A DNA stretch of 64,000 nucleotides from Escherichia coli (GTDB lineage Bacteria > Pseudomonadota > Gammaproteobacteria > Enterobacterales > Enterobacteriaceae): assembly GCF_013315695.1 (NCBI RefSeq), contig NZ_CP054353.1; one strand, given 5' to 3'. The translations under genes were made by a program, and so were the position numbers. Under the pieces are notes generated by a model. That model was not told the origin of the DNA and did not search any database. It worked only from the letters and a program-made list of their open reading frames with translations. Below are positions 4,877 through 53,711 of the stretch, piece after piece (position 1 is the first letter of the stretch; each line of letters opens with the position of its first letter).

Positions 4877-5407
4877 TTATTTATTCTTTGCGCGCTCGAA
4901 GGAAGCAACGATTTCAGCTTTAGCGGCTTCTGCGTTTTCCCAACCTTCAACTTTCACCCACTTGCCTTTTTCGAGGTCTTTGTAGTGCTCGAAGAAGTGA
5001 GCGATTTGCGCTTTCAGCAGTTCAGGCAGATCGTTTACGTCTTTAATGTGATCGTATTCTTTGCTCAGCTTGCTGTGCGGAACCGCAACCAGTTTCGCAT
5101 CTTCACCGGCTTCGTCGGTCATTTTCAGAACGCCAACCGGACGGCAACGGATCACAGAACCAGGCTGCAGCGGGTACGGAGTCGGGACCAGTACGTCAAC
5201 CGGGTCACCGTCCAGAGACAGGGTGTGGTTGATGTAACCGTAGTTGCACGGATAGAACATCGCGGTGGACATGAAGCGGTCAACGAACAGTGCGCCGCTC
5301 TCTTTGTCGATTTCGTATTTGATCGGATCTGCGTTAGCCGGGATCTCAATAACAACGTAGATGTCTTCCGGCAGATCTTTACCCGCAGGGACGTTGAGTA
5401 AGCTCAT
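4877..5407 (-). CDS. ppa: Inorganic pyrophosphatase (176 aa)
   Basis: Protein [32 protein letters not shown]... recognised as E. coli Ppa. Confidence 0.97.
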
Positions 5408-44398: not shown

Positions 44399-45928
44399 TC
44401 AGGCAAAGACAAATCTCGCCTGACTTACCTTCTTCTCCCCCCCCAGCAAACTCCCCAACATCCCGCGTACAATCTGATTCGTCACCTGGCGAGCGGCGCT
44501 TTTGGCCATTGTTTGCACCACACCATCTTTCTTCCCGCCGCGTGGTCCGGTAGTGCCGAACAAAATATCCTTCAATCCACCAAGAATGCCGTCATCCACC
44601 GCTACCTCTTTCCCTTTCGCGGGGGGATTATTTTGCTGCTCGGTACTGGCCTGAAAGCCTTTTTGCAACATCTCATAGGCGGATTCCCGGTCCACCTCAT
44701 CCTCATATTTGCCATACACCGGAGAGTGATTAATCAAGCCATTACGCTCATCTTCCGTCACCGGTCCCATCCGCGAACAAGGCGCAATCACCATCGCCCG
44801 TTCCACCACAGAAGGGCTTCCTTTCGCATCCAGAAAAGAGATCAACGCCTCGCCGGTGCCCAGTTTCTGAATCGCCTTTTCGGTATCAAATGCCGGATTG
44901 ACCCGCATGGTTTGCGCCGCAGCTTTTACCGCTTTCTGATCTTTGGGCGTAAAAGTCCGCAAAGCGTGTTGAACGCGATTACCGAGCTGGCCGAGCACGT
45001 TATCCGGAATATCGGACGGATTTTGCGAAACGAACCAGACGCCCACGCCTTTTGAGCGAATAAGCCTTATCACCTGCTCAATCTTATCCAGCAGTACCTG
45101 CGGTGCATCGTTAAACAGCAGATGTGCCTCGTCGAAGAAAAACACCAGTTTTGGTTTCTCCAGATCGCCCGCTTCCGGCAATTGTTCATACAACTCCGAG
45201 AGCATCCACAACAGGCTGGCGGCATACAGTTTCGGCATCTGATAAAGCTTCTCGGCGCTGAGGATATTGATAACGCCTTTACCGTTGGCATCGGTGCGCA
45301 TCCAGTCTTTGATATCCAGCATCGGCTCACCAAAGAAGTGTGCTGCGCCTTGCTGTTCCAGCGACAACAGCCCGCGCTGGATGGCACCAACCGATGCGCT
45401 ACTGATATTTCCGTACTGATTCTGGAAAGATTTGGCGTTATCGCCGATGTATTGGGTAATCGCCCGCAAATCTTTAAAGTCGAGCAGTAACAGCCCCTGA
45501 TCGTCAGCAATGCGGAAGATGATATTCAGCACGCCAGATTGCACATCGTTGAGATTCAACAGCCGCGCCAGCAACAGCGGCCCCAGATCCGAAACCGTCG
45601 CCCGCACCGGATGGCCTTTCTCGCCAAAGATATCCCACACCACCACCGGATTGGCATGCGGTTGCCAGTCATTGACGCCGATATTTTTAAGCCTTGTGAG
45701 CAGTTTTTCCGACGCCGTTCCTGCCTGCGCGATACCGGTCAGATCGCCTTTCACATCAGCCATAAACACCGGCACGCCGATTTCCGACAATGACTCTGCC
45801 AGTTTTTGCAGCGTAACGGTTTTACCCGTCCCCGTTGCGCCAGTAATCAGCCCGTGACGGTTAGCCATTCCCGGCAGTAAAAACAGTTCTGTGTCCGGCG
45901 TGCGGGCAATTAACAGGGGTTCGCTCAT
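44399..45928 (-). CDS. yjgR: Uncharacterised ATPase YjgR (DUF853), about 509 aa
   Basis: Walker A (GATGTGKT) and Walker B (FFFDEAH); start at [11 protein letters not shown] is uncertain. Confidence 0.85.
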
Positions 45929-47270: not shown

Positions 47271-47355
47271 GCCGAAGTGGCGAAATCGGTAGACGCAGTT
47301 GATTCAAAATCAACCGTAGAAATACGTGCCGGTTCGAGTCCGGCCTTCGGCACCA
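47271..47355 (+). tRNA. leuX: tRNA-Leu (anticodon CAA), 85 nt with long variable arm
   Basis: Sequence gccgaagtggcgaaatcggtagacgcagttgattCAAaatcaaccgtagaaatacgtgccggttcgagtccggccttcggcacca. Confidence 0.95.
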
Positions 47356-49866: not shown

Positions 49867-50442
49867 TCAAATATCAGGGAGTTGCAAGAACGACTTAAGT
49901 CGGTAGAAGGTTGCTTTGCTGATCTCTAACCTATCCTGGACCGCTGCTGGTGGTAATCCTCGTGCTAATAACTCACGTACTTGTTCAACGGTTGCTTTGA
50001 TCGGTCTGCCGCAATGCTTACCTTCCGACTGAGCTCGTTTGATTCCTGCGGCTCTACGCTCTGCGATTAGGTCTTTTTCCAGGCTGGCAAGTCCTGCCAT
50101 CATAGTGAGCATGGCTTTACCCACTGGTGTTGAAAGATCAAACCCCTCTCGCAAGCTGACAACCTTCACACCCTTCATTTGCAACATTTCAACAGTAGAT
50201 AGTACATCGATAGTGTTACGTCCCAAGCGGTTTATAGCAATCACGATCAGCGTATCGCCTTCTCGCACATAATTGAGTAGTTCAGCAAACCCTGGACGCT
50301 CTCCTGCCTTGATTGCACCACTCACCGCTTCATCACTAAACCAGCGAGTTACGCTATAACCAGCATCGGCTATCTGCTTCTTCTGGTTTTCAACGTTTTG
50401 ATCGCTGGTGGAAACTCGCACATATCCGATCACAGTTGTCAT
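49867..50442 (-). CDS. Serine recombinase, resolvase/invertase family (191 aa)
   Basis: N-terminal catalytic motif IGYVRVSTSDQ and C-terminal HTH. Confidence 0.85.
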   Translation of the reverse strand: MTTVIGYVRVSTSDQNVENQKKQIADAGYSVTRWFSDEAVSGAIKAGERPGFAELLNYVREGDTLIVIAINRLGRNTIDVLSTVEMLQMKGVKVVSLREGFDLSTPVGKAMLTMMAGLASLEKDLIAERRAAGIKRAQSEGKHCGRPIKATVEQVRELLARGLPPAAVQDRLEISKATFYRLKSFLQLPDI

Positions 50443-50576: not shown

Positions 50577-50681
50577 TGGATAGCAGCGGTTTAGGAATAG
50601 AGGCTTGGAACGAGAGTATGGGGAGAATGGAAATTCGGAATGGGCGGTCAACTTATTGGGCGTGATTGCTCACGCCTTTGT

Positions 50682-51033
50682 TTAGATCTCAGAACACAGG
50701 CTCAGCGTGTAGAGTGCCGTTTCACCATCGTTGTTAGTTGGGCGCATAACGAAAACTGGATCACTGCCGTTGTCGATGTAAGTAACCGCTATTCCACCGT
50801 CTGGGGTGGCGTACATCTTCGCAATACTTTTCTCTCCAATGAAACCCAGCCGCCAGGTTTTACCACCCATGCTCACTTTCATGATTTTGTCCCGCACATC
50901 GAGGCGAGTTTCGACAGACGATTTTTGGCTACCAGAATCTATCTGCCCTTCCTGAATGGCCTTACAGGTGAATGTGGTTGCACTTGAGGCGAAGGGGGGG
51001 GACGAGCAGCGCCGCGAGAATCAATTTTTTCAT
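50682..51033 (-). pseudogene. Small secreted protein gene interrupted by a G8/C8 homopolymer frameshift (possible phase-variable gene)
   Basis: ATG at 51033 encodes signal peptide MKKLILAALLV then 8 C at 50994..51001 shifts frame; 7 or 10 C would join it to the 71-aa ORF 50682..50897. Confidence 0.5.
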
Positions 51034-51213
51034 GGTCTTCCTTTTGGATACGAGTTAAGAGTTCGTCGGGAGACATTATAAAATCTTTAATTGATAAAAA
51101 CGATCAATTTCTATCGTATTGATCGATAAAATTGATCATAATTGAAACTATAAATCCTACGCTCAGTCGTTATGGATGAGGTTTTTTATAAGAGAACTCA
51201 ACGGGATGATGTT

Positions 51214-51420
51214 ATGAAAAGAGCAATGATGGTGATGTGTGGGCTACTGTTTTCACAGTTGGTAGCAGCAGGGCAGATCACAATGATCGATCCCCAGCAG
51301 GATACGACGGAGAATGGCAAGACGCTTTGCACCTACGAGAACAGCCAGTATGTTTTTACCTACGTCACTAAAGGGCAGTGCCCCTATGCAAAGACTTTCG
51401 ATACTCAGGATTCAGAGTAG
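51214..51420 (+). CDS. Small secreted cysteine-containing protein (68 aa from MKRAMM)
   Basis: Signal peptide MKRAMMVMCGLLFSQLVAAG; mature part has two Cys (TLCTY, GQCPY). Confidence 0.5.
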   Translation: MKRAMMVMCGLLFSQLVAAGQITMIDPQQDTTENGKTLCTYENSQYVFTYVTKGQCPYAKTFDTQDSE

Positions 51421-52604
51421 AGGCTGCATAAAATAGGAAGTGTTGTTTAACTTCATGAAAAGACAGGTGTGCTTAGCACAAGCCTCCAACGGATTGATTG
51501 TTAATTCTTCTGATAACGGCACAGCGCAAGGCTTTACGCAAAGAGAGTGATAGTTACTATCTTGATGACTATGGCAATTTTCCCCCTGTAACAACGGCAT
51601 TCATTACCTGCTAATTACCAGCGGATTACGCGCCAGTTTGATGGGAATTAACTCAGGGTTATTGCATGGGGTAGTGTGGAGTGAGCAGGGTGACAGTCTA
51701 CCGTTGGGTGAAGGGCTGATAGGTAATCGACGCGAAGCGCCGGAACCATACTGTTATGCGCTGGCCTTGGTGCCAGGCTCACGCCGCGCATGAAAGATAG
51801 CCATTACAGGAGAGATAATTTTTGACAAGTTACCTTCATCAAAGGTGCTTCTCCTGTATAAATGCTTGTTATGCTCGCTATGCTCCCAAACACAAACCCA
51901 TTAAACCCAACTAACTTAAGGTTAGTTAATTGGTTTTCTCTCTCTCTTGGGCTACTACCGCCCAAACTTTGCTTAATGCCATACAGCGACTACGCCGCCA
52001 TTAACAACACTCCACAATGATCCAATGGCATTCCTGCTTAATGTCATCCACCGATCTTGATTAGCCACCAACCAAACAACCACCCTAAATCTTTTAGGCT
52101 GTCTGTTTATCTGGTGCAAGGTAGCTATGACATTACCATACGTGCAAACATCCCAAGCCAATCATCACTGATTGGCTCGTGCTGATGCACTTCAGTGCAG
52201 AGAGAGAATCTCTCTACTATTATAGCGTATTTAGTAGGTCCCTGTATTTAAAGGAAAAATTAGGGTGAAAATCGCCATTGTTCACTTTTTTTCTCAAGAA
52301 ATGGCGAGATGCTGTTCGTAAATGGGAGGCATGGCTGTCTTCTCTGGTGGCAAGTTCTACCACAAATTTTGATTGACAGCAACCATCTATTTCTGGTATA
52401 AGAAGCACTAATTGCAAAGCAAAAATGCAACTAATTGAAAATGACCAAAAATATTTCATGAGATCACCGTTTGGGTATTGACAAACGTTAGTGGTCTATG
52501 GTATTCTTAATACTAAGAAGGGGAGAAAACCTTCTGAACTTTTCAGCCCTGGGCAGGGTAACTGCCTGGGGCTTTTTGCATCCAAAATCCGAAGGAGGCC
52601 ATTA

Positions 52605-52790: not shown

Positions 52791-53711
52791 TTGATTCAAG
52801 CATACGAAGACGGCTATTTTTACAGAGATACCCCGCACCACGATCACTGCCCGCTTTCAGCATTTTCCAGACCATCCCAGCAATTCATCGTTATTGATAA
52901 TGTTCTGTACGTTGTCGAAGTGGAAAGTGGTGAAATTCTTCACTACGACTCGACAGAGTATTTGCTTGATGGTGGCATTGTTCAGGATCTGCATTTGAGT
53001 TACTCGACAGCAGACACCGCCAAATCAAAACAGGCTCACCGTGAATACGCTAATAAGCTGGGCGACCTTCCAGGGAATGCAGCCTATAACGGGATCAAGG
53101 AATACGCAGACGTATTAAGCAAGCCAGATTTCAAGAAAGTATTTGCATTGTGTCAGGAAGTAGATAGACGCAATGTAGTGTTTATAAAACGTGCGGATTT
53201 GAGCATAATACTGAACACCACGCCGGATCATCTCAATCGTGTATTATCTGCTCTTGAACGTAAGCACTACATCAAAGTTGATAAAGCTGAACACCAGAAA
53301 GGAGTATTAAAACTGTGGGTTAATCCTTCGTTTGTCTGGAAGGGTGATTCAGCTAACCGCTACTTATCTGGATATTTGCAGGGCTTCCCAATCTTGGAAC
53401 GTAAACGCTCCACAAAACGTTCTGACGTGCTCGACACGCTCACGGCTGCTGCAATGGTTGCCTTTGATACCTGGCACATTGAACACGGTTATAAGGCCAA
53501 TCAGCCTCATTCTAATGAATGGTATGCAGAGATCACGATGTACGAAAACGCCTACGGCGAAGGGGTGAGGCTTGCAGCAGAAAATAAGACATTGAACAAG
53601 TTATTGAACCCGGCAACATCTGAGGGGGATTTCGTTTATGAGCTATTCACTACGGCACAATACAGGGAATACCTGCAAACATTGGCAAAACAAGTAAGGA
53701 GATTACACTGA
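52791..53711 (+). CDS. Hypothetical protein (306 aa, TTG start) with possible winged-helix region
   Basis: SD AGGAGG at 52781..52786, TTG at 52791; N-terminal His/Cys cluster (HHDHCP); central helix-rich segment; no recognised catalytic motif. Confidence 0.6.
   Translation: MIQAYEDGYFYRDTPHHDHCPLSAFSRPSQQFIVIDNVLYVVEVESGEILHYDSTEYLLDGGIVQDLHLSYSTADTAKSKQAHREYANKLGDLPGNAAYNGIKEYADVLSKPDFKKVFALCQEVDRRNVVFIKRADLSIILNTTPDHLNRVLSALERKHYIKVDKAEHQKGVLKLWVNPSFVWKGDSANRYLSGYLQGFPILERKRSTKRSDVLDTLTAAAMVAFDTWHIEHGYKANQPHSNEWYAEITMYENAYGEGVRLAAENKTLNKLLNPATSEGDFVYELFTTAQYREYLQTLAKQVRRLH

Follow-up and report, generated by a model that had tools for sequence, protein, structure and literature searches.

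A small minus-strand gene of Escherichia coli is interrupted near its 5' end by a run of eight cytosines, at the point where a signal peptide would otherwise lead into an exported protein. The question raised by this locus is whether the run is a reversible switch, an error of sequencing or an inherited loss of the reading frame. The first-pass annotation of the window (the whole stretch of 64,000 nucleotides from contig NZ_CP054353.1 that was analysed) had put forward slipped-strand phase variation and sequencing artefact as the two candidate explanations. Based on a comparison with public assemblies carrying the same island, we consider it probable, at roughly 80%, that the window holds a lineage-fixed frameshift pseudogene allele located at a young slippage hotspot, and neither an error nor a fast switch.

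The small gene, its product and its island

Reading of the sequence bore out that the minus-strand ATG at 51033 opens MKKLILAALLV and that the tract consists of exactly eight C, corresponding to G8 at 50994-51001 on the plus strand. The features of the gene are as follows.

50682..51033, minus strand: the whole frameshifted gene, a pseudogene in the present allele (repaired translation and PGAP annotation)
50994..51001, minus strand: the C8 homopolymer (G8 on the plus strand) in codons 11-14, GTC CCC CCC CTT, one base over the in-frame C7
50962..51033, minus strand: the truncated 5' ORF, MKKLILAALLVPPLRLKCNHIHL up to its stop, with the n- and h-region of the signal peptide followed by out-of-frame residues
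50682..50897, minus strand: the 3' remainder, a 71-aa GTG ORF in the mechanical listing, for which gene callers give a 66-aa ATG ORF (P0044)
51037..51043, minus strand: AAGGAAG as Shine-Dalgarno sequence, separated from the ATG by 3 nt, read from the sequence
51075..51080, minus strand: TATAAT hexamer, probably the -10 box of the small gene
50658..50677, no strand assigned: GC-rich, terminator-like hairpin just downstream of the stop, from a sequence scan

The C8 frame reads ...VPPLRLKCNHIHL, with the residues LRLKCNHIHL following the tract, and it ends at the stop 50962-50964 after 23 aa in total. The early stop had been described correctly but not its distance, which was given as 14 more codons: the Val codon leading into the tract is followed by 12 more sense codons, of which 10 come after the two Pro. 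When the tract length was changed in silico, C7 and C10 restored the frame as proposed and shared the stop at 50682-50684, but the single figure of ~117 aa did not hold for both, the product being 116 aa with C7 and 117 aa with C10. With C5, C6, C8, C9 or C11 the sequence is out of frame from the ATG at 51033. The C7-repaired product is a 116-aa pre-protein identical to WP_000733505.1 (P0001). The ORF of the 3' remainder is without a signal peptide and has no obvious Shine-Dalgarno sequence. A consensus promoter scan of the minus strand found no -35/-10 pair for the small gene, the TATAAT hexamer standing alone. Two G/C runs of at least 8 nt were observed in the window against 0.86 expected (first-order Markov, analytical estimate), so the bare run is not beyond chance; it is the position within a conserved ORF that gives the run its meaning.

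The region 51090-51140 (minus strand) between the small gene and a divergent 68-aa gene contains three GATC (Dam) sites in 36 bp (51102, 51121 and 51134). An inverted repeat with perfect 8-bp arms, CGATCAAT-N9-ATTGATCG, also occurs there, shortly before the TATAAT box. This might be an operator, or else a site sensitive to methylation. A 1-bp deletion around window position 51111 is present in some genomes of haplotype B (see below).

The repaired protein had no match at E <= 1 in Pfam or NCBIfam. It belongs to a narrow family, with 13 cluster representatives among 1.84 billion proteins and members in Escherichia, Enterobacter, Klebsiella, Buttiauxella and Raoultella. It matches the unannotated phrog_35183 over its full length, and despite this a tblastn search of phage genomes (INPHARED) with the repaired protein gave no match. 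A search of plasmids returned a single paralogue of 41% identity, in DNA that is really chromosomal. This 115-aa paralogue is encoded at 5001-5348 of NZ_CP114132.1 (the "plasmid" pNJS001-2), between thiM and rcnR, with a gene for a 104-aa "outer membrane protein" after it; the molecule of 438 kb looks like a chromosome fragment or a misassembly, given that the ordinary chromosomal genes yegW, yegX, thiD/M, rcnRAB and yehB are present on it.

The N-terminus has the make-up of a typical Sec signal (MKK, then the hydrophobic core, then SSA followed by T), the database name is "Secreted protein", and the gene would accordingly encode a small Sec-exported periplasmic protein, probably cleaved to a mature form of about 97 aa. 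Cys23 and Cys113 are invariant in the family alignment, and dN/dS in the mature part is 0.05-0.09 among intact alleles; the small gene is real and its intact alleles are under strong purifying selection. AlphaFold2 returned an eight-stranded all-beta model (best pLDDT 77, core 85-93, with the five models disagreeing), and the protein is thus predicted to be an 8-strand periplasmic beta-barrel. Its weak resemblance to the PliC/MliC fold may serve as a lead only: there is no sequence similarity to the PliC/MliC periplasmic lysozyme inhibitors or to the PhiA and ACP barrels, and unrelated and de novo barrels score almost equally. By sequence the protein does not fall within PliC/MliC (Pfam family MliC, PF09864), and a search of the PDB with the family profile matched no PliC/MliC chain.

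The small gene sits in a roughly 9.5-kb defence island adjoining tRNA-Leu(CAA) (47271-47355). The gene order in this island is cytosine methyltransferase, Eco29kI-family endonuclease, 191-aa serine recombinase and the small gene, and then the divergent 68-aa gene, a winged-helix protein, KwaB and KwaA (Kiwa) and a tyrosine integrase. Two neighbours of the small gene and one distant run in the window are needed below.

49867..50442, minus strand: the 191-aa serine recombinase (resolvase/invertase family; PF00239, E = 4e-41; phrog_125)
51214..51420, plus strand: the divergent 68-aa gene with a signal-peptide-like N-terminus (phrog_4641), part of a conserved three-gene module
44437-44444, minus strand: a second G/C8 run (C8 on the plus strand, G8 in yjgR), within the final codons of yjgR, a core gene

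The serine recombinase lies directly downstream of the small gene on the same strand and accompanies it in other islands. The module formed by the 68-aa gene, the small gene and the serine recombinase recurs beside HigB/ImmA genes in a different island, which E. coli C shares with about 40 more genomes. PADLOC recognised no known defence components (0) among the module proteins. The possibility that the recombinase acts as an invertase of the small gene or its promoter was considered and rejected, there being no convincing inverted repeats; the best flanking pairs are short and imperfect.

Just upstream of the recombinase start, the segment 50455-50515 of the window contains a perfect 12-bp inverted repeat, GTCTCAAAAGGT / ACCTTTTGAGAC, with arms 37 nt apart and an extra copy of TTTTGAGAC between the arms, an arrangement reminiscent of a res-like or autoregulatory site to which the recombinase might bind. 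One SNP diagnostic of haplotype A falls in the repeat region, about 28 nt upstream of the recombinase ATG.

The window practically matches EcPF7, a urinary isolate of ST2279 (PMC7427188), with 100.0% identity over 24 kb. The sole substitution between the two in 12.9 kb is a T at window position 52888 (plus strand), in codon 33 of the 306-aa winged-helix gene (52791-53711), which reads ATC (Ile) here and ACC (Thr) in every related locus examined, EcPF7 included. Two non-coding repeats vary in length among the relatives: a (CT/GA)n dinucleotide repeat at ~51932-51948 is 2 bp shorter in seven of them and an A-run at ~52292 is 1 bp shorter in four others.

Origin and inheritance of the C8 allele

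The first-pass annotation had named the lack of any intact full-length homologue as a refutation of its reading, and such homologues were in fact abundant. C7 together with an intact 116-aa CDS (WP_000733505.1) is present in the complete genomes JSWP006, CEA106S and MINF_7C, which are 99.4-99.6% identical to the window over 901 bp around the small gene, and C7 is the state of the tract in the intact relatives L002-L004 and L022-L029. The C7 allele reads GTC CCC CCC TTC (VPPF) at the tract. The corresponding sequence is GTC CTC TCC TTC (VLSF, tract site CCTCTCC) in E. coli C, GTC CTC CCC TTC (VLPF, tract site CCTCCCC) in E1739 and one other contig (L055), and GTC ATC CCA TTC in one further allele. 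In a family alignment of 17 sequences only the tract allele departs from L, I or F at position 12, and the tract was not seen in any other allele or genus carrying the gene. With a variable hydrophobic residue at position 12 and no tract elsewhere in the family, the run is best regarded as a recent accident of one allele. A scan of metagenomes for the left flank followed by at least six C gave only two contigs, both C7, which is a small sample.

The frequency of each tract length was examined using the fact that each length predicts a distinct gene-caller product; the products were looked up by exact sequence and counted by contig.

C7: intact 116 aa, 307 contigs
Frameshifted copies: truncated 66-aa call, 168 contigs
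C6: 130-aa read-through from an upstream out-of-frame ATG at 51076, 6 contigs
C9: 131 aa, 6 contigs

The products predicted for C5 and C10 were absent from this exact-sequence look-up, and C6, C7, C8 and C9 were each confirmed in contig DNA. The slipped-strand origin suggested by the first-pass annotation is supported by these results, given that the intact ancestor is C7 and that C6, C7, C8 and C9 versions of one allele exist.

Different laboratories produced the three complete genomes with C8 (EcPF7, MS15047 and NCTC9080, the latter two with the same sequence as EcPF7 at the locus), and C8 was also read in every further haplotype-A contig examined (L007, L009, L032, L033, L040 and L042-L046). 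Over 8-13 kb no other indel separates the C8 contigs from the window. The EcPF7 assembly is a hybrid of 74x Illumina and ONT reads made with Unicycler and polished with Pilon (PMC7427188). PGAP/RefSeq labels the EcPF7 locus as a pseudogene, "hypothetical protein, frameshifted"; the frameshift is already flagged in RefSeq and is, in our reading, an ordinary lineage-fixed pseudogene. C8, and with it C9, is in complete linkage with three SNPs that define haplotype A, one at 51086, one in the spacer before the recombinase and one that is nonsynonymous within the recombinase, of which the first lies next to the likely -10 box and the recombinase allele WP_000214247.1 serves as the marker of the haplotype.

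51086, minus strand: SNP diagnostic of haplotype A, with A here and C in the C7/C6 genomes, 6 nt upstream of TATAAT

In the set of 21 contigs that remained after the indel check, all C8 and C9 tracts lay on haplotype A and all C7 and C6 tracts on haplotype B. Contigs were also sampled independently of the tract state by picking them via the haplotype-specific recombinase alleles. The haplotype-A recombinase is found in 602 index blocks, and the 7 distinct places that were read (26 contigs) were all C8. The haplotype-B recombinase is found in 691 index blocks, compared to 693 for the intact product, and its 10 places comprised five C7, three C6, one CCTCCCC and one without a tract. Neither a C7 revertant on haplotype A nor a C8 on haplotype B was found among the 7 + 10 sampled places, a sample of 7-10 places per haplotype out of about 600-700 index blocks each from which rare revertants could escape. 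About one in two public copies of this type of island now has the C8 allele.

The tract-less place in the haplotype-B sample is L054 (GCA_041227305.1, 2411-2761), where the haplotype-B recombinase stands beside a different small-gene allele, MKRLILAAMLVIPF..., with no C-run; this combination indicates recombination within the three-gene module. A private SNP common to the C9 contigs and the C8 contig L033 places C9 as a subclade derived from C8; 13 samples contain one and the same C9 contig.

The island has also changed its chromosomal setting. The C8 island of L007 (GCA_006234815.1) is separated from that of the window by one substitution and a single 2-bp indel, but the core gene ahr in its flank shows about 6% divergence, and the gene after ahr is a shikimate-kinase-like one in place of yjgR. 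For L032 (SRR32468520) the homology ends inside tRNA-Leu, with an M78-peptidase / Beta_protein cluster beyond. The C8 islands of these two differ from the window by 1-3 substitutions, and near-identical islands in such divergent flanks argue for recent horizontal movement of the island during which C8 was kept.

The C6 class is of mixed quality. Four assemblies of about 4.947 Mb (GCA_020556505/615/595/585), evidently of one strain, have C6 twice and C7 twice, disagree with one another at many homopolymers and CCWGG (Dcm) sites, and contain indels that split the integrase, KwaA/B, wHTH and methyltransferase genes; three other contigs (L012, L018 and L019) have private indels too. Part of the C6 signal is demonstrably a long-read artefact. 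Five C6 contigs (L013-L017) have no private indel beyond the tract and represent three sub-haplotypes, and one complete genome (L050) is C6, from which real recurrent C7-to-C6 events appear likely. Recurrent C6 would mark the run as a slippage hotspot and not as a switch.

Taken in sequence, these alleles suggest how the present state may have arisen. Two T>C substitutions in the h-region of the signal peptide changed VLSF to VLPF and then to VPPF (Leu-Ser to Pro-Pro), and the C7 run came about by accident through these two changes. Replication slippage would then have added one C in the ancestor of haplotype A (C7 to C8), shifting the frame after codon 13, with translation expected to stop at codon 24. 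The exported protein would thereby be lost from the C8 allele, save for a possible trace made by ribosomal +1 slippage. From then on the C8 allele has been inherited vertically and has travelled with the tRNA-Leu-associated island from one chromosome to another, and the C-run has stayed a mutational hotspot, with C9 arising from C8 and C6 from C7.

The proposed fixed frameshift weighed against other readings

The two properties by which a frameshifted pseudogene is recognised, a disrupted frame set against constrained orthologues and a heritable, real change in the DNA, were both found. The allele shares with slippage pseudogenes in mononucleotide runs the single-base insertion, the constrained orthologues, the clonal inheritance and the PGAP label "frameshifted". 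It differs from ordinary examples in that the stepwise origin can be traced (CCTCTCC to CCTCCCC to C7 to C8 to C9) and in that the broken allele is unusually common, about half of the island type. The downstream ORF of the C8 allele has no secondary disabling mutation, an observation that has no power either way since only about 0.25 mutations are expected in 350 bp on so shallow a tree.

A comparator is available within the window. The G8 run of yjgR gives a 509-aa protein in the window and in UMNK88, and with G7, in O157:H7 7636 and CNR65D6, the protein has 500 aa and ends in LLGGRRR; the annotations treat either form as intact. Here too, 6.5 kb away, a one-base difference in a G/C run between E. 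coli lineages alters a reading frame. The yjgR slip is in the last codons and alters the C-terminal tail alone, unlike that in the small gene. Given this G7/G8 polymorphism, one-base slips in G/C runs are ordinary in E. coli. A past mutator episode behind the two nearby G/C 7-to-8 changes was considered and rejected, as the G8 of yjgR is common to the unrelated UMNK88.

The alternative that survives best is a true contingency locus, that is, a reversible high-frequency switch in which C7 is ON and C6, C8 and C9 are OFF and which controls a periplasmic or surface-exposed protein. Poly-G/C phase variation is known from Neisseria, Haemophilus, Campylobacter and Bordetella; PMC1891110 and PMC5084427 are examples of papers on such loci. 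The locus resembles such systems in having a G/C run at the 5' end of an exported-protein gene, the classic position, with a length that toggles the frame (C7 and C10 in; C6, C8 and C9 out) and several natural lengths. Four tract lengths on one allele, the recurrence of C6 on at least three sub-haplotypes in contigs without another private indel, the derivation of C9 from C8 and the fact that ON and OFF are both common (691 versus 602 index blocks) all speak for a switch. Against it, the state tracks phylogeny, being perfectly nested in haplotype with C8 in 7/7 haplotype-A places, C9 in a single subclade and 0 revertants in the state-independent samples, and C8 was kept across different chromosomal backgrounds. 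Moreover, the tract was built by two recent substitutions and is not conserved across orthologues (CCTCTCC, CCTCCCC and ATC CCA elsewhere), being absent from every other allele and genus, and part of the C6 signal is long-read error (C6 in two and C7 in two of the four assemblies of one strain). E. coli is also mismatch-repair proficient, and a run of 8 nt does not exceed the length usual for functional switches. The comparison of tract lengths in homologous islands, which the first-pass annotation had named as a check, in this way told against the phase-variable switch, and we regard such a switch as unlikely.

A comparative estimate of the rate points in the same direction. The haplotype-A tree contains a single tract event and about 7 substitutions in 9.7 kb, from which the run would be roughly 1000 times as mutable as an average site. 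With a substitution rate in E. coli of roughly 2e-10 per site per generation, known from mutation-accumulation results, the tract rate would be about 1e-7 to 1e-6 per generation with a wide error. This is well below classical phase variation, orders of magnitude lower than the rates of about 1e-5 to 1e-2 per generation at which contingency loci switch. No usable figure for run-length-specific indel rates in E. coli was found among the accessible papers and the rate argument therefore rests on the comparative estimate. The run is more mutable than a plain site, since C6 to C9 all exist and C6 is found on at least three sub-haplotypes, and some would call such mutability low-rate phase variation.

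A variant of the above, somewhat less likely still, is that of an incipient contingency locus, recently born in a mismatch-repair-proficient enterobacterium, where C7 (ON) and C8 (OFF) of a new slippery tract would be held near-equal by alternating selection (e.g. from a phage or host factor that either targets the protein or depends on it) and slippage now and then would supply the variants C6 and C9 and perhaps reversions as well.

It is more doubtful again that the C8 allele is recoded, i.e. that a low-level or regulated 116-aa protein is made by ribosomes shifting +1 at CCC-CCC-C (tRNA-Pro) or by slippage of the RNA polymerase. The shift that C8 requires is precisely +1. Of the +1-shifty sites of E. 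coli, CCC-C is the best known, with shifting of as much as about 1% at codon 2 (PMC4519876), and a shift at either of the two overlapping CCC-C sites would give the exact wild-type protein. Ordinary, non-programmed frameshifting is however far below 1% (PMC4519876), no stimulatory RNA structure was found around the tract (fold z-score +1.16 compared to shuffled controls), the same region had no Rfam match, and the run is followed by an ordinary CUU codon, neither a stop nor rare. The shifted arrangement is also not conserved, all other alleles being in frame. In comparison with a programmed +1 frameshift of the prfB type, the slippery CCC-CCC-C is present and both the stimulators and the conservation are absent. 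Programmed recoding of the C8 allele is not plausible, while a trace leak by +1 slippage at C8 is plausible from the sequence of the run.

The reading as a sequencing or assembly artefact, with a true C7 and an intact gene, is already effectively refuted and by far the least probable: homopolymers are error-prone in long-read data and seven relatives carry artefact-like indels, some at the tract itself, but the same C8 is seen in independent assemblies from several laboratories and platforms (EcPF7, MS15047, NCTC9080 and more than ten draft or short-read-type contigs without other indels), the truncated product is found on 168 contigs, and the perfect co-segregation of C8 with three substitutions rules out a random homopolymer error. 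The lineage-fixed frameshift at a slippage hotspot is accordingly the reading we prefer.

Meaning for annotation and for the family

The frameshift has little significance beyond good annotation. It may serve as an illustration of how public assemblies alone allow a homopolymer frameshift to be sorted as inherited, artefactual or switching, with the tract-length-specific ORF products together with a linked protein allele as look-up keys. The spurious C6 and C7 calls that long-read-only assemblies give at this tract call for caution in automated screens for phase variation. The frameshift itself adds nothing on the function of the family. The narrow and strongly constrained enterobacterial family of predicted beta-barrels to which the small protein belongs, and which travels with a serine recombinase, may merit a functional look.
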